Shown in pieces: positions 600 through 28,471 of a stretch of 57,671 nt of DNA. The stretch lies in the IMG/VR virus record IMGVR_UViG_3300037198_000035, positions 1-57,671 of that record; one strand, given 5' to 3'. Every line of letters starts with the position of its first letter. The stretch's first letter is position 1. The DNA is from a virus. Taxonomy: Duplodnaviria; Caudoviricetes. The notes under the pieces are model-generated. The model was given only the letters and a program-made list of their open reading frames with translations, did not search any database and was not told the origin of the DNA. Position numbers and translations under genes: made by a program.

Positions 600-628
600 T
601 TGACGACACTTAATGGTTGTGTTAGTGT
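600..628 (+). promoter_or_regulatory. sigma70-like promoter of the transposase
   Basis: TTGACG-17 nt-TAGTGT with the -35 inside the left TIR; ATG at 637 is 8 nt downstream. Confidence 0.5.
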
Positions 629-636
629 TTTCATAT

Positions 637-1497
637 ATGAGTTATACGTTAATGGATTTCAACGCGCAGTTTCCCGATGACCGCGCTTGCTTGGATTACT
701 TGTTCAAACTGCGCTTTCCGAACGGCGGAAAGTGCGAGTGCGGGAAAGAAAATTGCTTTCATCCGATTGAGAAACGCCGCGCCTACGTCTGCGGCTGGTG
801 CGGCAATCAACTTTATCCGACCGCTGGCACGATTTTCCACAAATCCAGCACGTCGCTCGTCAAGTGGTTCTTTGCGATGGTTCTCATGTCCAATTCCAAG
901 AATGGCGTTGCCGCAAAGGAAATCGAGCGGCAAGTCGGCGTGACGTATAAGACAGCTTGGCGCATGGCGCATGAAATCCGAAAACTCATGGCCGATGAGC
1001 CGACCCCGTTCTTTGGTGAAGTCGAGGCCGATGAAACATACATCGGCGGGAAGCGCAAAGGCAAACGTGGACGAGGCGCGGCAGGTAAGACGCCAGTTGT
1101 CGGCGTCGTGCAGCGTCGTGGCGGCGTCCAAGCTAAGGTTGTGGACGTTGTGAACACCGCCAACGCCATCGGCCATATCCGCAAGACTGTGGCGCAAGGT
1201 GCGACGATTCACAGTGACGAGTATCCGGCCTACAACTACGTCAGCAAACTCGGTTACAGCCATGAGGTCGTGAACCACGGCGCGAAGCAATACGTTCGCG
1301 GACGCTGCCATACCAACACCATTGAAGGCTTTTGGGCACAACTCAAACGCAGTATTGACGGGACGCATCATCATGTTAGTCGGAAGCATTTGCAGGCTTA
1401 CGTTGACGAGTTCGCTTTCCGCTACTCGAACCGCTGGTTTTCGATTTTCCAGATTTTGATTGCGCGAGCGGGAGCGCAGCTTTCGACAGCACTTTGA
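637..1497 (+). CDS. tnp: IS1595-family DDE transposase
   Basis: N-terminal zinc ribbon (CECG...CGWC), HTH region, catalytic motifs VEADETYIGG, TIHSDE and NTIEGFW, C-terminal YVDEFAFRY; start probably at 637. Confidence 0.93.
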   Translation: MSYTLMDFNAQFPDDRACLDYLFKLRFPNGGKCECGKENCFHPIEKRRAYVCGWCGNQLYPTAGTIFHKSSTSLVKWFFAMVLMSNSKNGVAAKEIERQVGVTYKTAWRMAHEIRKLMADEPTPFFGEVEADETYIGGKRKGKRGRGAAGKTPVVGVVQRRGGVQAKVVDVVNTANAIGHIRKTVAQGATIHSDEYPAYNYVSKLGYSHEVVNHGAKQYVRGRCHTNTIEGFWAQLKRSIDGTHHHVSRKHLQAYVDEFAFRYSNRWFSIFQILIARAGAQLSTAL

Positions 1498-12526: not shown

Positions 12527-12811
12527 ATGATTCAAAAACTGTTTGCCCATTGGAAAACAACGTCTGCCGGTTTGCTGATGATTCTCGGTTCAGTCGTTCA
12601 TCTTGTGTTTTCCGTTCGCGCCCATACCGCCGACGAAAACACATGGACAATTTCATTGACGGCCATCATTGGGGGAATCGGATTGATGTTTTCTGGCGAT
12701 GCCGCAAACTCTGAAAAGAACTCCGTTGCGATTGACAAGATCAATCTTGAAGGCCCGGATGCCTCTGCTGCGCCACTGGCAGCCACGTCAGCCGTTCCGC
12801 CAACGCCATAA
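12527..12811 (+). CDS. putative holin
   Basis: 94 aa, HWKTTSAG motif, two TM helices. Confidence 0.55.
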   Translation: MIQKLFAHWKTTSAGLLMILGSVVHLVFSVRAHTADENTWTISLTAIIGGIGLMFSGDAANSEKNSVAIDKINLEGPDASAAPLAATSAVPPTP

Positions 12812-13608: not shown

Positions 13609-13707
13609 AATCAACGTATGAGCCAAGCCACAGCCAACCAAAAACCGTCAACCGTGAAAGCGGAGGCTGGCCACCCAATGGCTGTTGGCTTCGGCGATTT
13701 GTTGGGC
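13609..13707 (-). other. attC: attC-like recombination site
   Basis: minus strand GCCCAAC-5 nt-GCCGAAGC...GCTTGGC-6 nt-GTTGATT, with one extra base in L''. Confidence 0.75.
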
Positions 13708-14379
13708 TGGCGCGACTATGACAACCAAAACCAAAGGAATAATATGATGCAGAATTTAATCCTGTTTGCTTGGCGACATGGAATAACCGCTTGCGAGAAA
13801 AAGGCGGAGGCAATCGCTTTGGAACGAAGGGGGCCGCTGGTCAACATCGGCGGTGGCGTCACATCAAGCCGCTGGCACAACATTCCAAAATGTGATGCGA
13901 AAATTGACGGGCTTGATTTTAACACCCACCGGCTTCCTTATCCTGACAACCAATACGGGGTTGTGGTCTGTGAACAGGTCATCGAGCACCTTCACAACAC
14001 GACTTGGTTTTTGTCGGAACTGTATCGCATTTTGAAACCGTGCGGAAAGTTGTTGCTGGCGACGGAGAATCTCGGCTCATTGCCAAACATCTTTGCATTG
14101 CTGCTCGGCGTTGCCCCGTTCAGCACCCAGCCGTGCTGCGGAAAGTATCGCGGCGGATGGAAGCAGGGTACCGCAGATAATCATGGCTTGGAAAAGAACC
14201 ATCCCTGCTATTCGGGAGTCACCGGCCATGTGCGCGTGATGACCACGAAACAGTTATGCGAATTGCTGGTTGAATCCGGGTTCATTGTGCAGGCTGTCCA
14301 CGGCTTTTCCTTCCGGCACTACATTTTAATCGAAGCAACCAAAGCCGCGACCGCGCAGCCCAACAAGGTCCTATCATGA
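13618..14379 (+). CDS. class I SAM-dependent methyltransferase (cassette-borne)
   Basis: VNIGGG, LPYPDNQYGVVVCEQVIEHL, ELYRILKPCG. Confidence 0.85.
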   Translation: MSQATANQKPSTVKAEAGHPMAVGFGDLLGWRDYDNQNQRNNMMQNLILFAWRHGITACEKKAEAIALERRGPLVNIGGGVTSSRWHNIPKCDAKIDGLDFNTHRLPYPDNQYGVVVCEQVIEHLHNTTWFLSELYRILKPCGKLLLATENLGSLPNIFALLLGVAPFSTQPCCGKYRGGWKQGTADNHGLEKNHPCYSGVTGHVRVMTTKQLCELLVESGFIVQAVHGFSFRHYILIEATKAATAQPNKVLS

Positions 14380-20273: not shown

Positions 20274-20609
20274 TTATCTCCCGCCGGCTGCCGCCCCTTG
20301 CGGAGCGACAGCGTTCTTCTGTGTCTGTGAGACGCTCAAAGCAGTCTCGTTTTGATTTAGAACAAAGAACGCGCTGGGCTGCGATAACGGCAGCCGGCGG
20401 GGGATGGGGGAAGGTTTTAGTATGGCATCAAGCGGACTTATAGACAAGTAAGATTCGATGCGTTTCTCGGTGGATAGAGATTTAGGCAGGCGCTGGGAGT
20501 GTTCGCAAAACTGGCGGACATAGAGGCAATAACTATCCTCGGTAGAAAGCGAGAAGTGCTTTAGCCTTATGAACTCGCGTACTTTTTGAACTGCCTGATC
20601 CGTTGTCAT
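20274..20609 (-). pseudogene. intI: internally deleted integron-integrase-like gene
   Basis: IntI-like N-terminal domain (VREFIRLKHFSLSTEDSYCLYVRQF...IESYLS) joined directly to the IntI C-terminal SPLD; catalytic RHRY domain absent. Confidence 0.8.
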
Positions 20610-20610
20610 A

Positions 20611-20645
20611 GATAAGTTACAAATGTTGCTTAATCATTGTTCAGC
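20611..20645 (+). other. attI: attI-like site
   Basis: immediately upstream of the intI start; ends in core GTT (20639-20641), whose downstream bases complement the first cassette's R'' flank. Confidence 0.65.
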
Positions 20646-20934
20646 GGCTTACCGTAGAGAGGTATGCTTTTGTTTCTGCCGCGAATCGTTCTTTACCGGC
20701 TGCTGGATTTGCGACCAGTCCTTTATCAATGTCGCTACACAGTGCAAAACCGGCGTCGTATCCCTTTACGAAGGCGAGTTCTATTTGTTTGCTGTCTGTC
20801 ACATATACGGTGTTTGTCTTGTATTGCGTCACAGTTGTTTCGGTGGCTGATTCTTGTTTCGAGCAGCCGCTGAACAATTCCATGCAGGCGACAGCTAGTG
20901 TTCCTGCCAGTGCGATTGATTTCAGTCTTTTCAT
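20641..20934 (-). CDS. cassette 1: putative lipoprotein
   Basis: MKRLKSIALAGTLAVACMELFSGC signal with lipobox-like Cys. Confidence 0.65.
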   Translation of the reverse strand: MKRLKSIALAGTLAVACMELFSGCSKQESATETTVTQYKTNTVYVTDSKQIELAFVKGYDAGFALCSDIDKGLVANPAAGKERFAAETKAYLSTVSR

Positions 20935-20994
20935 ATTTCGGTTTCAGTTGTGAGTCTCGGCATTACCCGCCGCGCCTGATGTCGGTCGTTCGGC
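20869..20994 (+). other. attC: attC-like site 1
   Basis: GCTGAAC-AATTC-CATGCAGG...CCTGATG-TCGGTC-GTTCGGC. Confidence 0.85.
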
Positions 20995-21251
20995 TTTTTC
21001 ATTTGTGGTCGCACCGGAAGTGATTCCTGATATTTGCGTGCCCTTTCATTTCCTGATTTGCAGTCAATTTTATGCCCCGGCCACACCGCAGCACACTCTT
21101 TGCACTTCCCGTTTTTATGGCGGTTTTCATCCGTTGCCCAAGCCGAACAAGGCGTTGCAGATAATTCGCTTTTCCGCTTTCGCCTCATGGCGTCTTGACA
21201 CAAGATGCAGTCCTCGTCGTAGAGGATATGACTTTTACAATGGTCGCTCAT
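20931..21251 (-). CDS. cassette 2: Cys/His-rich hypothetical protein
   Basis: 106 aa with CILC and CKEC...H..C; starts in attC2 and ends in attC1. Confidence 0.6.
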   Translation of the reverse strand: MSDHCKSHILYDEDCILCQDAMRRKRKSELSATPCSAWATDENRHKNGKCKECAAVWPGHKIDCKSGNERARKYQESLPVRPQMKKPNDRHQARRVMPRLTTETEI

Positions 21252-21272
21252 ATCTGAACTTTCTCGTTAGGT
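21142..21272 (+). other. attC: attC-like site 2
   Basis: GCCGAAC-AAGGC-GTTGCAGA...TCTGAAC-TTTCTC-GTTAGGT. Confidence 0.85.
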
Positions 21273-21273
21273 G

Positions 21274-21522
21274 CTAATTGATTTCTCGGCATTCAATGCT
21301 CGGTTTTTCACATTTTTTGCCTGCGAATGGGCAGTCTATCCGCTCCATCTTGGTTAGGAACTTTCCCACGTCTTTCTCGCTTGGATGGCGCAGTTCTGTT
21401 GTGAAGTTGCCGAGCTTCGTTCCACATTCGGCGCATCGGTATTCCGTTCCCTCTAGCGCGTCATTTATTTCTTGGATGACTTTCATATTCGTGAGTTCGC
21501 ACCTAACAACGCGCTGCTGCAC
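21274..21522 (-). CDS. cassette 3: small zinc-finger-like protein
   Basis: CAECG...HP...CP; start may instead be MKVIQ at 21486. Confidence 0.55.
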   Translation of the reverse strand: MQQRVVRCELTNMKVIQEINDALEGTEYRCAECGTKLGNFTTELRHPSEKDVGKFLTKMERIDCPFAGKKCEKPSIECREIN

Positions 21523-21627
21523 AACGAGTGGTGTCCCTTCCAGTTGGCGGCATCGCGTTAATTTTACGGTTTGGTTGCATTGGTTACTCCCTGCCCACCA
21601 CTCGTGGCAGAGCTTGATTCGTTAGCC
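21501..21627 (+). other. attC: attC-like site 3
   Basis: ACCTAAC-AACGC-GCTGCTGCACAACGAGTGGTG...CACCACTCGTGGCAGAGC-TTGATTC-GTTAGCC. Confidence 0.88.
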
Positions 21628-21848
21628 GTCTCTGCGAGTAAGATGCGGGCTTTTGATGCCTCGCGCCCCAAATCACTTACTGCGACTTCTCGTGTTCCGA
21701 CTAGCGCTTGGGCGTCGTAGCGATGAGCACACACGTAGTCAGCCCTGTTCGTGAGGTTTTGGAGTTGTTCACGCAGACGGCTAACAACGCGCTTCACCGC
21801 GACGTCGGATAGCCCCTTCAGTTTGGTTGTTTTTTTGGCAGTACTCAT
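21564..21848 (-). CDS. cassette 4: hypothetical protein
   Basis: 94 aa; starts in attC4 and ends in attC3. Confidence 0.6.
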   Translation of the reverse strand: MSTAKKTTKLKGLSDVAVKRVVSRLREQLQNLTNRADYVCAHRYDAQALVGTREVAVSDLGREASKARILLAETANESSSATSGGQGVTNATKP

Positions 21849-21905
21849 ATTCCAGTTTTCCTTTCTCCACCCGCCACCGGCGCGGGTGAGCTTGATTCGT
21901 TCGGC
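21779..21905 (+). other. attC: attC-like site 4
   Basis: GGCTAAC-AACGC-GCTTCACC...GGTGAGC-TTGATTC-GTTCGGC. Confidence 0.85.
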
Positions 21906-22194: not shown

Positions 22195-22656
22195 TCAAAA
22201 AGGCACGTCATCGGATTCGCCTTCGCTTGGCAATGGGGCGGGCTTCGTCGCTGGAATTGTCACCGGCGCAGGCGGCAAGTAATCGTCCACTTCATTTTTA
22301 TCGCCGTATTTCGGATCGTGGGTAATTTTCAACCGCACAAATCCAGTTCGGCCCGCCCAAGAATTTGAAGCCGGGTCAACCACGCCAGATTCGTATTCCT
22401 TTGCCTTTCTCGTCGTCTCACAGAAATGCTTCAACTTCCACTCACTGAACCAGTCCGCGAAATAATCATAAACGTGACGATCAAAGTCCGGGCCATGCAC
22501 ATTCAATTTCAGCGCACACATTTCCTTACCGGCGTTCTTTGCCGACTTGCTGGTTTTGATATCGCTCTCCAAAACTGTGAACGGATAGTCACCGTCCGGC
22601 AGATTTGAAAAACGCGATATTTCGGATTCGTCTTTTGGTGTAAATTTTAGTGCCAT
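22195..22656 (-). CDS. ssb: single-stranded DNA-binding protein (DUF669-like)
   Basis: LPDGDYPFTV..., acidic DDVPF tail, adjacent to an AAA_24 gene. Confidence 0.75.
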   Translation of the reverse strand: MALKFTPKDESEISRFSNLPDGDYPFTVLESDIKTSKSAKNAGKEMCALKLNVHGPDFDRHVYDYFADWFSEWKLKHFCETTRKAKEYESGVVDPASNSWAGRTGFVRLKITHDPKYGDKNEVDDYLPPAPVTIPATKPAPLPSEGESDDVPF

Positions 22657-22665
22657 AATTTTGTT

Positions 22666-23565
22666 TTATTGAAGTTTTTTCTTAAGCCAGATAATTGTCG
22701 CCGCCGCCTGTTCAGTCGAAAGCTCCTTCCAGGATTCAACCCCGGCCCTCGTCCAAACTTTTTCGATTTCCTGTTCCGTGGTTTTGACTACCGAAAGCAA
22801 TTTTTCGATTTCCTTGATCTGCTCCGGTGTTGCAAACGTGATTTGATGCGTGGCGGATTCGATGTAATCCTTGCCGTAACGCTTCGCAAATTCGTCGTAT
22901 TCGAGCGGGAACTGCTCAAGGTCGGGGAAGCCGAGCAACCGCGATTTCTTTACGATGGCAATTCTCGCCGGGCCGCGCTTGACAGCTTGGAGCGTCAGGT
23001 GAAGCTCAAAAATGAGTTTGTCCCAAACGTCGGGTATGCGACCAATTTCCGTGCGCTGGCCGCTTTTGGCGTCCAAACCCCATTCAGCAGTGTCGTGCGC
23101 GACAAACCAGATATTCATATCCAGTTTCATCGCCCAGTTGACCAGCCGCCGCATTCCGGCAATGGCCGGCTTCTTAGACGCGCCAAAGGCGTCTTTCTCG
23201 CCCAGGCGTTCCGCCTCGTTCGCAATGGCGGTCTGGTAAAGCTTCGTGATGCTGTCCACGATGAGCGTTTTGTAAGGATGCTTTTCGGCGGCGAGCGCCT
23301 GCATCTGCTCGATCAAGAAATTGAAATTAAGTGCGCCGTCTTTCGGGCCAATGTAGGCGCCCCCACTTCGCTTGAGCCGGTCTTGGTAATGTTGCAAATC
23401 CGCCCCACCCTCTGTGTCAATGTAATACGGCGCTGGAAATGTCAGAGTGAACCATGTCTTTCCGACGCCGGACGCACCGAAAATCATTCCTTTGGTTTTA
23501 CCTGGAAGAACATCTTCCGGTGATTTTGCTTTTAATTTTGTGACTGTTGTGTTTTGTGGTGGCAT
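22666..23565 (-). CDS. AAA_24 / Sak4-like recombination ATPase
   Basis: Walker A GASGVGKT, IDTEGG, TLIVDSIT, FVAH. Confidence 0.85.
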   Translation of the reverse strand: MPPQNTTVTKLKAKSPEDVLPGKTKGMIFGASGVGKTWFTLTFPAPYYIDTEGGADLQHYQDRLKRSGGAYIGPKDGALNFNFLIEQMQALAAEKHPYKTLIVDSITKLYQTAIANEAERLGEKDAFGASKKPAIAGMRRLVNWAMKLDMNIWFVAHDTAEWGLDAKSGQRTEIGRIPDVWDKLIFELHLTLQAVKRGPARIAIVKKSRLLGFPDLEQFPLEYDEFAKRYGKDYIESATHQITFATPEQIKEIEKLLSVVKTTEQEIEKVWTRAGVESWKELSTEQAAATIIWLKKKLQ

Positions 23566-24352: not shown

Positions 24353-25180
24353 ATGCCGCTCTACCAAATTAAAGACTGGGACGCCTTTTTTGAGAACGAC
24401 CGCAGCCGCAACCGTATCCAGTGCTCGTTTGTGTGCGTTCCAAACAAGCAGCATGGTATGGGCTTTTGCCGTATCATGGCCGAGGTGGACGGGGCGGCGA
24501 TCTACGGCATTTGGCATTGCATTGTGGGCGCCTGTTCCCAGCAGCGCAAACGCAACGGCTGGCTCACACCAGACGGTGACAAGGCGGTGAGTGGATGGGG
24601 AGTCGAGGACCTGGCTTTGAAGTTCCGCCGGCCTGAATCCGAAATCGCCCGCGCATTGGAAGTGCTTTGTTCTGAAAAGGTTGGGTGGATTATTGACCAC
24701 GAAAACACCGCAAGTCACCGCCAAGTCACCGCCAAGTCACCGCCTACTCACGTAGAAGGAAGGAAGGAAGGAATAGAAGGAAAGAAGGAAGTGAATGGTC
24801 GCTTCACTCCCCCCGCGCTCGAAACGGTGAAGCTTCAAGCCGCCAAAATCGGACTCAGCGACCTCGAAGCGGAGAAGTTTTTCAACCACTACACCGCTAA
24901 CGGTTGGAAGGTTGGGAAAAACCCAATGCGGTCATGGACTCACGCGCTTTCAAACTGGAAGCTCAACGCTCAAAATTATGGAAACGGAAAAATCAACAGC
25001 ACGAACAGCCGCCCAAATCCTCGAAACGTCGGAATCATTCGCGGGCCTACGGACTACGCCACCGCCAAGCCGCGCCGCCAAGTCGAACTCGAAGCCGAAC
25101 GCGCTCGCCTGGCAAGCCAAGTGGCTGCCGATGAAAATAACCCACCCACAACTCAATCAGGCGCGGGCGTCACTGTTTAA
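24353..25180 (+). CDS. phage replication initiator protein
   Basis: N-terminal YQIKDWDAFFE domain, iteron-containing linker, C-terminal FTPP...EKFFNHYTANGWKVGKNPMRSW domain; upstream of a DnaC-like gene. Confidence 0.8.
   Translation: MPLYQIKDWDAFFENDRSRNRIQCSFVCVPNKQHGMGFCRIMAEVDGAAIYGIWHCIVGACSQQRKRNGWLTPDGDKAVSGWGVEDLALKFRRPESEIARALEVLCSEKVGWIIDHENTASHRQVTAKSPPTHVEGRKEGIEGKKEVNGRFTPPALETVKLQAAKIGLSDLEAEKFFNHYTANGWKVGKNPMRSWTHALSNWKLNAQNYGNGKINSTNSRPNPRNVGIIRGPTDYATAKPRRQVELEAERARLASQVAADENNPPTTQSGAGVTV
24711..24790 (+). repeat. iterons and purine tract (putative replication origin)
   Basis: three tandem CAAGTCACCGC (24711-24743) followed by (GAAG)n. Confidence 0.75.
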
Positions 25181-25733
25181 TTTCTGCGCAGCTTATTCAA
25201 AACAGCCAAGCTGCGGCAGGACCGTCATTCTCTACGGCGAGAACGGGAGCGGAAAAACCCGCCTGATAAAACAAGTCTGCCGTTGGGCGTCACTCACCGC
25301 GCAATTCATGCCGATGGTGAACCGGCCCGACCTTGGAGATCAAACCGGGCTGGCTTACTCGCTTTTTTATCACTGGCCATCCGTGGTGGATGAGTTCCAA
25401 AAACGGCAGGACATCGGAGCGGTTGACGAGTTGATGGATTGCAGTCTGGCTGTGGTTGATGACATTGGAGCAGAGCACGACCCAAGCGGATTTGGACGCG
25501 AGCAGCTTTACCTTCTGCTGTCTCGCCGGGAATATAAATGGAACCTGTTCACGACAAACTTTGCGCCCGCCGAATGGGACAATAAATTTGAGCGTCGGAT
25601 TGCCTCTCGACTGTTTCGCAACGCGGAGCACATTGACCTTTCGATGGTGCCTGATTTCTCGACGGTCAATTTAAAACCGCTCATTCAGTCGCCAGAGTTG
25701 GCGAAGAAGTTCCGGGAGGCGGCAAAAGTTTAA
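24978..25733 (+). CDS. DnaC/IstB-like AAA+ helicase loader
   Basis: GENGSGKT, VVDDIGAE, FTTN, RIASRL; start uncertain (24978 or 25131). Confidence 0.85.
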   Translation: METEKSTARTAAQILETSESFAGLRTTPPPSRAAKSNSKPNALAWQAKWLPMKITHPQLNQARASLFNFCAAYSKQPSCGRTVILYGENGSGKTRLIKQVCRWASLTAQFMPMVNRPDLGDQTGLAYSLFYHWPSVVDEFQKRQDIGAVDELMDCSLAVVDDIGAEHDPSGFGREQLYLLLSRREYKWNLFTTNFAPAEWDNKFERRIASRLFRNAEHIDLSMVPDFSTVNLKPLIQSPELAKKFREAAKV

Positions 25734-25850
25734 CGAAAAAGCTCAGACGCGCTCGCGGTGAGCTTGGCAAAAAGAGAAAGGTAAATATGACAAAACGACA
25801 ATCGAAAACTGGAAGGCGTACCCCGCGTCGTCTGAAGCGCGTTGTTAGCC
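25728..25850 (-). other. attC: attC-like site
   Basis: minus strand GGCTAAC-AACGC-GCTTCAGACGACGCG...CGCGTCTGAGC-TTTTTC-GTTAAAC. Confidence 0.82.
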
Positions 25851-26044
25851 GTCGTAAGCGCGCGCTCGCAACCTTCTATATTCCGCCGGATGACGGGACA
25901 AACTTCGTGATACCAGGGCCACCTGACGAAGCGGGGCTGGACATGGCAAGCGACCACATGGGCATTCCGGCGGTTCAAATAAAAGTGCGCCGAAAATATG
26001 TGACGGAAGCGTTTCTAAAAAACCTGCCCGAATACGACGGCTAA
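25787..26044 (+). CDS. solo-cassette hypothetical protein
   Basis: 85 aa; starts within the attC loop; stop lies in the core site GGCTAAC. Confidence 0.65.
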   Translation: MTKRQSKTGRRTPRRLKRVVSRRKRALATFYIPPDDGTNFVIPGPPDEAGLDMASDHMGIPAVQIKVRRKYVTEAFLKNLPEYDG

Positions 26045-26159
26045 CAGTTGATTCAACCAACCTGGTTGGCATAACTCAAAAAATAACCGCTTGACATTCC
26101 CGCACTTAAGCCGCCGTCCCGAAGCCAACGGCAGGCCGATTGCGATTTGGAGGAAGAAA

Positions 26160-26353
26160 TGATCGCGCTCAAGCAATGGCTCGCAACTGAAGCAGCGCGG
26201 ATGCTGACAACGCCCGCCGTGATTTACAATGCCCTGCGCCGGGGCGATTACAAGAACGTCCAACTGCGGCGCGTAAACAAGCGCGTTGTGTTCGTTCGCA
26301 AACTCAGGACACACCCGCACAGATTCCAAGTGAACACCGGACAAAACAACTGA
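26160..26353 (+). CDS. small putative DNA-binding protein
   Basis: LKQWLATEA...TPAVIYNALRRG HTH-like segment. Confidence 0.5.
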
Positions 26354-26354
26354 A

Positions 26355-26567
26355 ATGAAACCCCGCGAATGTGAATCAATGGCCGACCTCTGCTCGATGG
26401 ACTCAACACACAAGAGCGTTGGGAGATTCGATATGTTGCTGCAACACGACCAAGCTGTGATATTCACCGACCAGCCAAACGGCGAAAAATGCCGGGCCAC
26501 AATCACAATTCCAAAACCCATCTTCCTGCAAATGATCGAATGGTATTCAACTGACCAAACCACTTAA
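26355..26567 (+). CDS. hypothetical protein
   Basis: 70-aa ORF abutting the upstream gene. Confidence 0.5.
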   Translation: MKPRECESMADLCSMDSTHKSVGRFDMLLQHDQAVIFTDQPNGEKCRATITIPKPIFLQMIEWYSTDQTT

Positions 26568-26730
26568 AGCCGGGGCGCTCTTGGCCTGTTGCCAAGCGGT
26601 CTTAAAATCCACCGTCACGCGCCCCGGCTTATTTTCCGGCGTTTGGTGGTATCTGGACACCATCCGACATCGAAAAGCCCGTCTCAAGTCATTTGCGGCT
26701 TGAAACGGGCCTATGTGGTGGATGGACAGA

Positions 26731-27216: not shown

Positions 27217-28017
27217 TTAGCTGTTGTGGTCTTGAGCCTCTTGTTTGGTGATGAAAAAGTGGATGCCGTTTGAGCATTCTAATAGCGGGTTAGGGTCGTA
27301 TTTGTCCGGCTTGACGGTTTCGCCCACTTTGTAAACATGCCCGTTGTGCAAACCTTTCCCTTCACCCCCAAGTACAATGGCGAATTCGGCTCGGCACTTG
27401 CGACCAATTAACCCGCCAACTCGTTTTGCTTTAGCCGGGATTTGCAGTTTGCATAGCACGCCGTTTTGCAACTTTTTCCAGCCGATTAAATCACCTTCCG
27501 GCAGGATGGTTCTTTGATTCAACAATTTTTTCAGGTCTGCGCCTGACAGGTTTGCGCCTGACAGGTATGCGCCTGACAGGTCTGCGCCTGACAGGTATGC
27601 GCCTGACAGGTATGCGCCTGACAGGTCTGCGCTTGACAGGTTTGCGCGTGACAGGTTTGCGCGTGACAGGTCTGCGCTTGACAGGTATGCGCCTGACAGG
27701 TTTGCGCTTGACAGGTATGCGCCTGACAGGTTTGCGCCTGACAGGTTTGCGCGTGACAGGTTTGCGCCTGACAGGTTTGCGCCTGACAGGTATGCGCCTG
27801 ACAGGTCTGCGCCTGACAGGTTTGCGCGTGACAGGTTTGCGCCTGACAGGTCTGCGCCTGACAGGTCTGCGCCTGACAGGTTGGCACCGCGCAGGTCGGC
27901 ATCGCGCAGGTTGGCATGGATGGCAAGCGCGGCAATTATAGCATCGCCGATGCTTTCCGCGTCGGTTTCAAAAATAACTGTTTCTCTATTCCAGCGGGAT
28001 ACAATTTTTATTTTCAT
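27217..28017 (-). CDS. pentapeptide-repeat protein with C-terminal DUF5758-like domain
   Basis: about 25 A(D/N/Y)LS(G/R/S) repeats; C-terminal GWKK...KCRAEFA...ECSNGIHFFITKQEA. Confidence 0.9.
   Translation of the reverse strand: MKIKIVSRWNRETVIFETDAESIGDAIIAALAIHANLRDADLRGANLSGADLSGADLSGANLSRANLSGADLSGAYLSGANLSGANLSRANLSGANLSGAYLSSANLSGAYLSSADLSRANLSRANLSSADLSGAYLSGAYLSGADLSGAYLSGANLSGADLKKLLNQRTILPEGDLIGWKKLQNGVLCKLQIPAKAKRVGGLIGRKCRAEFAIVLGGEGKGLHNGHVYKVGETVKPDKYDPNPLLECSNGIHFFITKQEAQDHNS
27532..27915. repeat. 15-bp coding tandem repeat
   Basis: (CAGGTHTGCGCBTGA)n encoding the pentapeptides. Confidence 0.95.
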
Positions 28018-28057
28018 AATTTTATTTGAGTTGCCGCCAGTTAAGGCGGCGATTGGG

Positions 28058-28471
28058 TTAGTTCTGCATCTTCCTTTCCTCGTCAACCAGATCGTGCAAC
28101 TGCAAATCTTCAAGATCGGCAACGAACATAATGCCAAATTGCTTTGTCTTGATGAAACAGCCGTGCCGGTGCGTTGAGTGGTCGGGCAGGCAGAACAGGC
28201 CCCAAAGCCCGCTTGAGGACGTGTAAGCGGTTTGCGTGTAGCCGAGACGCTTGGCGGCGCGTTCGCAAAACTCAATTTCCTTTTCGCTCATTTCGACTTG
28301 GTTAATATCCGGCGCTCCCCCGGTCGGAATTGTGGCGCGTTTTATGGCGGAGCAAACTAGCCCGGCATATAACCCGCCGACTGTTCCGTCCTGCTTGTCG
28401 GCCCGCTCTTTGTAGCGTAGAAAATTGGCCGCGTCTTCACTGTCTGCAAACTGTATTTTCACTGTTTTCAT
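28058..28471 (-). CDS. hypothetical early protein
   Basis: 137-aa ORF with A-rich upstream region. Confidence 0.6.
   Translation of the reverse strand: MKTVKIQFADSEDAANFLRYKERADKQDGTVGGLYAGLVCSAIKRATIPTGGAPDINQVEMSEKEIEFCERAAKRLGYTQTAYTSSSGLWGLFCLPDHSTHRHGCFIKTKQFGIMFVADLEDLQLHDLVDEERKMQN

Follow-up and report, generated by a model that had tools for sequence, protein, structure and literature searches.

A gene cassette beside an attI-like site in the replication operon of a viral genome, probably the stranded end of an integron array

The window analysed here, a 57,671-bp stretch of DNA, is the complete IMG/VR virus record IMGVR_UViG_3300037198_000035, which CheckV rates as linear and 100% complete. 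Behind its gene for a DnaC-like helicase loader lies a block, at 25668-26102, that is probably one end of an integron cassette array, the attI-proximal one, left stranded with no integrase in the rightward replication operon. Read in the direction of transcription, this block would consist of a 66-bp cassette tail, a complete 311-bp cassette carrying the small gene ORF85, and an attI-type site of ~60 bp. The attC site of the cassette precedes its gene because the genes of this family are coded on the attC bottom strand, and the ribosome-binding region and ATG of ORF85 lie in the variable loop of attC. Integrons are known mainly as bacterial gene-capture devices and few have been reported in phages; the locus offers base-pair-level evidence of a phage-like genome exchanging a small early gene as an integron cassette, and through it a family of viral contigs came to light in which long cassette arrays lie beside true integron integrases. 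The features of the locus are listed below, a slash marking a predicted crossover.

25131-25667, plus strand: backbone part of the DnaC-like helicase-loader gene (PHROG phrog_50, DnaC-like, E 5e-18)
25668-25733, plus strand: truncated tail of a second cassette, 66 bp, fused in frame to the DnaC-like ORF and ending at the TAA of GTTTAA/C
25728-25850: attC site, 123 nt; top strand on the minus strand by convention, recombinogenic bottom strand on the plus (mRNA-sense) strand
25734-26044, plus strand: gene cassette, 311 bp, with crossovers A25733/C25734 and A26044/C26045
25787-26044, plus strand: ORF85, the cassette gene, with its ATG in the attC loop and its stop at the TAA of GGCTAA/C
25843-25856 and 26033-26046: perfect 14-nt inverted pair TGTTAGCCGTCGTA, its left arm being R'' plus 7 nt
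26045-26102, plus strand: attI-like site, C then AGTTGATTCAACC and, 25 nt on, ATAACTCAAAA
26159-26353, plus strand: ORF68, the next backbone gene, whose homologue directly follows the DnaC-like gene in three relatives (L081-L083)

The attC site and its family

A first-pass annotation, made from the sequence alone, had proposed a full attC-like site at 25728-25850, and this assignment is confirmed by an out-of-sample profile score, by structure and by covariation within the family. We read the geometry of the site off its sequence against the definitions in the attC-structure passages of Nivina et al. 2016 (PMC5027507), according to which an attC site is 57-141 nt long, has a central spacer of 5-6 nt in each arm, and carries two or three extrahelical bases opposite the AAC triplet, the first at position 16 and the last, a T, at 23 or 24, with a 6-bp stem between them. 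The 123 nt of the present site fall within this length range. Its R' box, GTTTAAC (25728-25734), is a perfect fit to RYYYAAC, and its R'' box, GTTAGCC (25844-25850), matches GTTRRRY at six of seven positions. Unpaired spacers of 6 and 5 nt (GAAAAA, 25735-25740, and GCGTT, 25839-25843) are followed by an L stem of 3 bp (GCT with AGC) and then by an extrahelical A at 25835, which is position 16 counted from the R'' end. A 6-bp stem (25744-25749 paired with 25829-25834) separates this base from the second extrahelical base, a T at 25828 (position 23), beyond which three further pairs can form. Both extrahelical bases sit on the arm opposite the AAC triplet, which defines the plus strand as the bottom, recombinogenic strand and puts the conventional top strand on the minus, in agreement with the first-pass annotation. 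The integrase-gene (intI) stub and the main attI site of a second, larger array in the window, the main array, lie on the side expected for this attC orientation and provide an independent check of the strand assignment.

Since this copy belonged to the training set of our covariance model, R1, which scores 25728-25850 at 82.7 bits, a leave-window-out profile was made from 17 non-window copies; it matches 25731-25849 over the full profile length (36.3 bits, E 3.5e-10). Covariation was assessed on an alignment of 20 elements from 13 sources, in which AAC and GTT are invariant (20 of 20) and the consensus fold comprises 19 pairs, 11 of them with compensatory changes. Paired cells amounted to 97.1%, versus 79.0% in shuffles and 27-53% in slid controls, and there were 63 double-change cells versus 19.6 in shuffles; none of 500 shuffles reached either observed value.

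A self-search of the window found 25788-25853 to be similar to 21776-21840 on the minus strand, and three full copies of a ~125-nt element (copies A to C) could be aligned, each oriented with local transcription. Their common ends are xxxxAAC GAA(TC)AAGCTC and AGCGCGTTGTTAG, and the 13-mer GTTAGCCGTCGTA is present in the window three times exactly. With filters off, R1 gave six sites in the window below E 1e-4, namely the three training copies and three new sites, the remaining 12 listed matches having E 2.7-9.8.

25728-25850, plus strand: copy A, the site at the locus
21779-21905, minus strand: copy B, main array, 92.8 bits (training copy)
21501-21627, minus strand: copy C, main array, 115.9 bits (training copy)
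21142-21272, minus strand: main array, 25.7 bits, outside the training set
20868-20994, minus strand: main array, 48.3 bits, outside the training set
13609-13707, plus strand: a further lone attC-like site, 34.5 bits, E 1.4e-7, outside the training set

The element is conserved as DNA rather than as protein, because copy C, where it runs over the 3' end of one ORF, retains the DNA sequence but not the reading frame. A motif scan of viral contigs returned 63 loci, and in five of these other contigs (L003, L006, L010, L015 and L065) copy C is found again, 95-96% identical over 123-135 nt. They represent three distinct contexts, L003 being the same as L015, and L006 the same as L010, across the part that aligns. 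Sequences flanking copy C are unrelated among contigs, and conservation begins and ends exactly at (C)CTAAC and GTTAGG. In elements of the copy C type the loop ATG opens a 25-codon frame that ends at the TAG of GTTAG, and the next gene begins just past the element. The lone site at 13609-13707, which scores 14.0 bits (E 0.0028) on the leave-window-out profile, precedes a SAM-methyltransferase-like ORF (13618-14379; Methyltransf_11, E 1.6e-9); this gene is 94% identical to positions 69-730 of a metagenome contig, L099, where it heads a cassette array.

Applied to 34 loci, R1 found 117 sites arranged as same-strand arrays, many of them of ten or more. The arrays of L087-L098 lie upstream of, and co-oriented with, integron integrases, and two other motif loci (L085 and L086) have full-length tyrosine recombinases 350-600 bp away. 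The latter two proteins pass the NCBIfam integron-integrase model TIGR02249 (270.4 and 270.7 bits; cut-off 265), and the closest solved structure is that of the Vibrio cholerae integrase VchIntIA (2a3v, E 7e-44), in an alignment that covers the IntI-specific insertion. Relatives of the family integrase occur in twelve viral loci and in a thirteenth genome (G010). An attC array beside an integron integrase is therefore found at the level of the family, the window itself keeping only an IntI stub. Structure, this family link to integron integrases and the mobility of the cassette described below support the identification of 25728-25850 as an integron attC site.

Four of the viral loci (L051, L032, L013 and L019) carry same-strand arrays of at least ten attC sites with a spacing of ~300-400 bp. 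Among species-representative bacterial genomes, an 18-mer of the attC 3' arm occurs at 13 loci, none of which has the full element by blastn, and R1 found related short-attC arrays in two of these, on contigs of metagenome-assembled genomes (L073 with seven matches and L072 with six). One of the two contigs is assigned to Chthoniobacterales (seven sites) and the other to Thermoanaerobaculia (six). These lineages are possible hosts of the family, or the arrays may be prophages.

The ORF85 cassette and its attI-like flank

The mobility of the ORF85 cassette is supported by a comparison of sequences in which one unit appears in two contexts with its junctions at the predicted crossovers. The second context is L099, whose positions 1388-1686 align with window 25731-26048 at 97.6% identity (290 matches, 7 mismatches and 23 gap columns). 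The likeness begins and ends at the predicted AA/C crossovers, with junctions TAA/C and GGCTAA/CAGT, and the 100-nt flanks on the two sides are unrelated (20% and 38% ungapped identity). In L099 the cassette lies among other cassettes, with R1 sites at 723, 1115, 1387, 1677 and 2025; the same contig also matches window 13705-14365 (94%) and 21017-20873 (76%), and the shared units are thus differently arranged in the two genomes. The L099 copy of the cassette is without 21 nt (1480-1500) between two CGTCGT repeats and thereby loses the R'' core and 7 codons, a deletion that has probably immobilised this copy.

The perfect 13-bp inverted pair that the first-pass annotation saw bounding the cassette body, with GTTAGCCGTCGTA at 25844-25856 (plus) and 26033-26045 (minus), is present and in fact extends to 14 nt, embedded in a 21-nt inverted repeat of 86% identity. 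The window holds three perfect 14-mer inverted pairs with a gap of up to 300 nt, versus a mean of 0.02 in mononucleotide shuffles, 2 of 100 of which hold any such pair. The structure of the cassette explains this pair: the R' half that belongs to it is at the far end and would pair with R'' in the excised circle, where the two arms together would make up the R box. In the main array, an inverted pair of 11 nt is the counterpart in the ORF94 cassette.

Cassette genes of the family lie on the attC bottom strand, so that in transcription order a cassette reads C, attC, then gene and finally YTAA. As already proposed from the first reading, ORF85 starts inside its attC site, with an ATG at 25787 within 25728-25850. 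A coding-strand survey took in 39 profile matches from non-redundant loci, 10 of them not scorable by the pattern used: an in-frame ATG lies inside the element in 14 of the 39 (ORFs of 59-192 aa), 13 have no ATG in that frame, and two have one upstream. In the ORF85 cassette the conserved attC 3' arm encodes the residues around ...KRVVS. More generally, ORFs that start in an attC loop share a basic N-terminus ending in ...AV(Q/K)RVV(S/R), which this conserved arm encodes.

The ORF85 protein has three relatives in the database including itself, the others being P0002 (89%) and P0003 (70%), full length, and 29 pattern matches in viral contigs yielded no confirmed relative. It has no match in Pfam, PHROG or NCBIfam and no usable match in the ESM Atlas, and its AlphaFold2 model has a mean pLDDT of 52, too low for a fold search. 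Since a scan of 25400-26700 found no promoter-like or terminator-like site at the cassette, the sole promoter-like site being at 26581-26608, ORF85 may be expressed by read-through from the rep/DnaC operon, and its translation would begin at the ATG at 25787, in the attC loop.

A likeness between the distal flank of the cassette and the main attI-like site (20615-20641) had also been noted at the first pass, together with the suggestion that the attI motif be aligned. Our attI profile was built from 12 junctions located just upstream of intI in other contigs, which share AAC ARTGATT(A/C)... and, ~25 nt further, (C)GTATAWCTCA. Over the window this profile ranks the main site first (20645-20622, 12.6 bits, E 0.0098) and the flank second (26039-26085, 10.7 bits, E 0.04), with the third match at E 1, so the flank scores as attI and the likeness holds. 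Across 649 kb of loci the profile scored integrase-adjacent sites only, including the untrained site of L019 at 11.0 bits. The attI models give the flank 8.5-9.7 bits versus 9.1-11.0 for that out-of-sample attI of L019; four of five attC arms had no reported match on these models and the fifth (L099_next) scored at most 1.7 bits. The two boxes of the flank and the 25 nt between them are common to L090, and the two attI-type sites of the window differ from each other. Judged by its sequence, the flank at 26045-26102 is supported as an attI-like site, although it does not occupy the place between intI and the first cassette that defines an attI.

Limits of the block, its likely origin and other readings

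The DnaC-like ORF, whose start codon is uncertain (the ORF listing gives TTG at 24912), stops at 25731-25733, which is the TAA of the core GTTTAAC at 25728-25734, just as the first-pass annotation had it. Homology to the DnaC relatives of L079-L084 stops at ...PDFST(I/V), and the last 22 codons are absent from all relatives. Contigs of run X1 have other DNA in front of 25668-25711 and the arm of a different attC behind 25684-25737, which identifies 25668-25733 as the tail of a second cassette. The description of the cassette as solo thus stands in the sense that there is one complete cassette, and fails in that it is accompanied by this tail. At the other end of the block, contigs of X1, X18 and X20 run together over 26041-26102 before parting, and in one X20 contig the divergence comes before 26043; divergence both before 26043 and behind 26102 suggests an attI-type sequence that has other partners and is joined to them at the crossover. 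The metagenome contigs accordingly have loose ends at 25668, 25737, 26043 and 26102; being short and ~95% alike, they lend support both to the second-cassette tail and to other partners of the attI-type sequence, but do not settle either point. The outer breakpoints (25668 and ~26103) are not core sites, and the block is therefore likely to have been stranded or moved by recombination that did not involve the integrase.

Comparison of the tail (25650-25740) and of the region 26045-26160 with all fetched loci gave 13-nt chance matches only, and a search of viral contigs for an intact integron with a flank-homologous attI, using a 30-nt loose-end consensus and a 21-nt window stretch, gave no exact matches. 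None of four genomes with DnaC relatives (G006-G009) has an integron integrase, and R1 matched nothing in four DnaC-relative loci (L079, L080, L081 and L084). These relatives are only 32-65% identical in protein, and an empty site was not recoverable from them at the nucleotide level.

We infer that an integron integrase brought the cassette in, attI x attC exchange taking place at the A/C of the AAC triplet, and that ordinary, non-integrase recombination or a deletion later parted the array end from intI. Such a rearrangement would have left an attI site, a cassette and a cassette tail between the DnaC-like gene and ORF68. Because the genome has no integrase of its own, the cassette could move only with a related integrase acting in trans, and its excision would leave the empty junction AAAGTTTAA joined to CAGTTGATT. 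As far as its sequence goes, the locus does not look like a demonstrably active platform. The earlier suggestion of a second, integrase-less platform is thus sound as regards an attI-like flank with no integrase adjacent to it, and the word platform is best taken as a structural description.

Several observations weigh against the stranded-array interpretation. At the attC site, the R'' box departs from its consensus at one position, and the first extrahelical base is an A where a G is usual; single-sequence DNA folding of 25728-25850 is no better than that of shuffles (z -0.34 on the plus strand and -0.46 on the minus), so the case for the hairpin rests on family covariation. On the attI profile the flank reaches a modest score (E 0.04 over the window), and the profile's first 7 columns overlap the cassette end common to every cassette. 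No integrase adjoins 26045-26102, the next gene being ORF68, so that the setting which defines an attI is absent. For the cassette, L099 is the one further context that was recovered, and its habitat is possibly similar. The contigs with loose ends are short, at 79-212 nt, with low depth and ~95% likeness, and other elements are a possible source of them. Finally, 25300-26500 is present at 0.98-1.00 of sampled words in 20 of the 23 runs listed (all 20 were flagged as possible sources, under 13 study codes that perhaps represent one campaign), and no joints skipping the cassette were seen in four runs mapped on 25300-26500; this uniform arrangement gives no sign of turnover at the locus in the phage population.

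Two other integron-based histories must be weighed against a stranded array. A GTT site at the DnaC-like gene's 3' end, secondary and non-att, may have received a single cassette from an integron integrase, the attI likeness of the flank then being due to chance. The target, GTTTAA/C, would match the core perfectly, Cury et al. 2016 (PMC4889954) and a preprint (10.1101/2022.09.11.507474) document insertion at sites that are secondary or genomic, and the modest attI score of the flank is in keeping with it. However, the flank scores like a true out-of-sample attI on models that give the five attC arms close to nothing, and it has both boxes and the 25-nt spacing in common with L090. Moreover, the 66 bp upstream are not DnaC backbone, and their occurrence elsewhere before another attC makes the upstream junction one of cassette to cassette, so insertion into a secondary site seems to us quite improbable. 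Alternatively, the flank, taken as 26045-26159, may be the decayed attC of a further cassette, in which case the locus would be an eroded attC cluster. Within the family, attI sites do resemble attC 5' arms (C, then RRTGATT or GAATCAAGC), in L099 the attC that follows the ORF85 cassette also starts with CAGT, and the 115 nt of the flank end in GCGATTTGGAGG, which is faintly like attC 3' ends. Yet the attC covariance model, with filters off, finds nothing in 26045-26159 at E up to 10, and the second attI box, ATAACTCAAAA, stands at the spacing of the family. An attC-arm profile also gave no match, a weak negative given that it missed the true arm of 25728-25850 as well. On balance, a decayed attC is an unlikely source of the flank.

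The element could in principle have nothing to do with integrons and serve instead as a regulatory repeat of the phage, or represent a 5' region that small paralogous genes have conserved. Consistent with this, it holds a ribosome-binding site, an ATG and ~20 codons of gene, an in-frame ATG is found in 14 of the 39 profile matches surveyed, and folding of the single sequence is not significant. Against it, copy C keeps the element without the reading frame, five other contigs are conserved exactly from CTAAC to GTTAGG between unrelated flanks, 11 of 19 pairs show compensatory changes, and the arrays lie beside integron integrases; we consider such an origin very improbable.

Beyond a stranded array end, one might imagine a broader role for the locus, although we hold it only tentatively. 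Uncultivated peat and permafrost phages may have an integron family of their own that runs 'backwards', with the integrase-less attI-type site serving as a second landing pad and small early genes being shuffled between sites. From each attC the gene would receive its ribosome-binding site and start codon as well as a basic peptide, common to the family, at the N-terminus (...AV(Q/K)RVVS), and the arrays would be transcribed from phage early operons towards attI and intI. A related integrase provided in trans by a co-infecting phage or by the host could then allow exchange between the two divergent early operons and between phages.

Genome setting and comparison with known systems

The locus belongs to an early/replication module of phage type that spans 19.5-26.6 kb and includes the following genes.

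22195-22656, minus strand: DUF669/SSB-like gene
22666-23565, minus strand: Sak4-like ATPase
24353-25180, plus strand: replication-protein-like ORF

The large structural ORFs mostly have no Pfam match and their PHROG matches are weak, so the label of phage derives from the IMG/VR classification and from this module. Distant-mode blastn of 24353-26600 against public phage genomes gave zero matches, and an Rfam scan of the whole window matched no family. Elsewhere in the record are an IS1595-family transposase near its left end (613-1497, plus strand; DDE_Tnp_IS1595, E 7e-45), a gene for tRNA-His (12722-12811, minus strand), which is the sole tRNA of the record, and a gene, located directly downstream of the replication module, for a pentapeptide-repeat protein that carries a DUF5758 domain at its C-terminus (27217-28275, minus strand).

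The main array lies 3.8 kb from the site at 25728-25850, on the opposite strand.

20868-21905, minus strand: main array, four attC sites found by R1, with ORF94, ORF82, ORF106 and ORF97
20615-20645, minus strand: main attI site, the best attI-profile match in the window (12.6 bits)
20274-20609, minus strand: integron-integrase stub (PF13495, E 6e-7)

In a six-frame search the stub covers only positions 2-51 of the 315-position model TIGR02249, and its best NCBIfam matches are to integron integrase, at 18-22 bits versus cut-offs of 265 and 435. The tyrosine-recombinase catalytic domain (PF00589) is found in none of the six frames of the whole genome, and tblastn of the window with the IntI proteins of L085 and L086 gave no match below E 2. 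In the main array, the cassette nearest to attI (20641-20934, minus strand) encodes a 97-aa protein with a weak EexN-like match (E 0.056), whose N-terminus, judged by eye, resembles a lipoprotein signal (...LFSGC).

Phage-borne integrons, and a cluster of attC sites lacking integrases (CALIN) with its own attI, are already published, and the locus in the window is a variant of these. In the survey sections of Qi et al. 2023 (PMC9892861), three complete integrons, one In0 and 17 CALINs are reported among 10,705 phage genomes. The Shewanella prophage M16-3 described there, with one complete integron plus a CALIN that each begin with attI, resembles the window in being a phage-type genome that combines one integron with separate integrase-less cassettes starting at an attI-type site. 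It differs in that the locus in the window has one complete attC, below the two-site threshold for a CALIN, in that the main integrase of the window is also dead and its two attI-type sites differ, and in that the window's integron type is not a captured Shewanella or Vibrio host integron and belongs instead to a family of many uncultivated viral contigs. The CALINs that the same source gives for the virulent phages TJE1, P12002L and PH101 are likewise integrase-less attC sites in phage genomes, but as described there they comprise two or three predicted sites without an identified family integrase, whereas the family of the window shows an integrase, arrays of at least ten sites and cassette exchange. 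Like sedentary chromosomal integrons, as characterised in that paper, the family has a homogeneous attC type, copy C being 95-96% identical in five contigs; unlike in those integrons, these copies are spread over viral genomes and not gathered in one chromosome. The relevant part of Cury et al. 2016 (PMC4889954) traces attC sites that have no integrase to a lost intI, to rearrangement or to insertion at a secondary site. According to the portion of the IntegronFinder 2 preprint (Neron 2022) that deals with them, CALINs are reported from two attC sites up, and with one attC the locus falls outside that class.

The locus can also be compared with the canonical cassette, as it is set out in PMC5027507 and PMC4889954. 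Common to both are an imperfect hairpin with R and L boxes, AAC and GTT triplets, a spacer, extrahelical bases at 16 and 23 and a 6-bp stem between them, as well as an R' that is chimeric in the array, the half belonging to the cassette being at the far end, and the occurrence of one cassette in two contexts joined at A/C. The first extrahelical base is A or C here rather than G. The gene lies on the bottom strand of attC, its start being in the variable loop ('attC then gene'), and in this orientation the cassette of the window could not be expressed from a promoter located on the attI/intI side. A literature search, not exhaustive, found no specific report of bottom-strand-coded cassettes or of integrons in viral contigs. 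Inverted coding logic of this kind would alter both cassette prediction and our view of cassette expression, since pipelines built for the canonical order of 'gene then attC' would mis-assign every cassette of the attC family found in the window.

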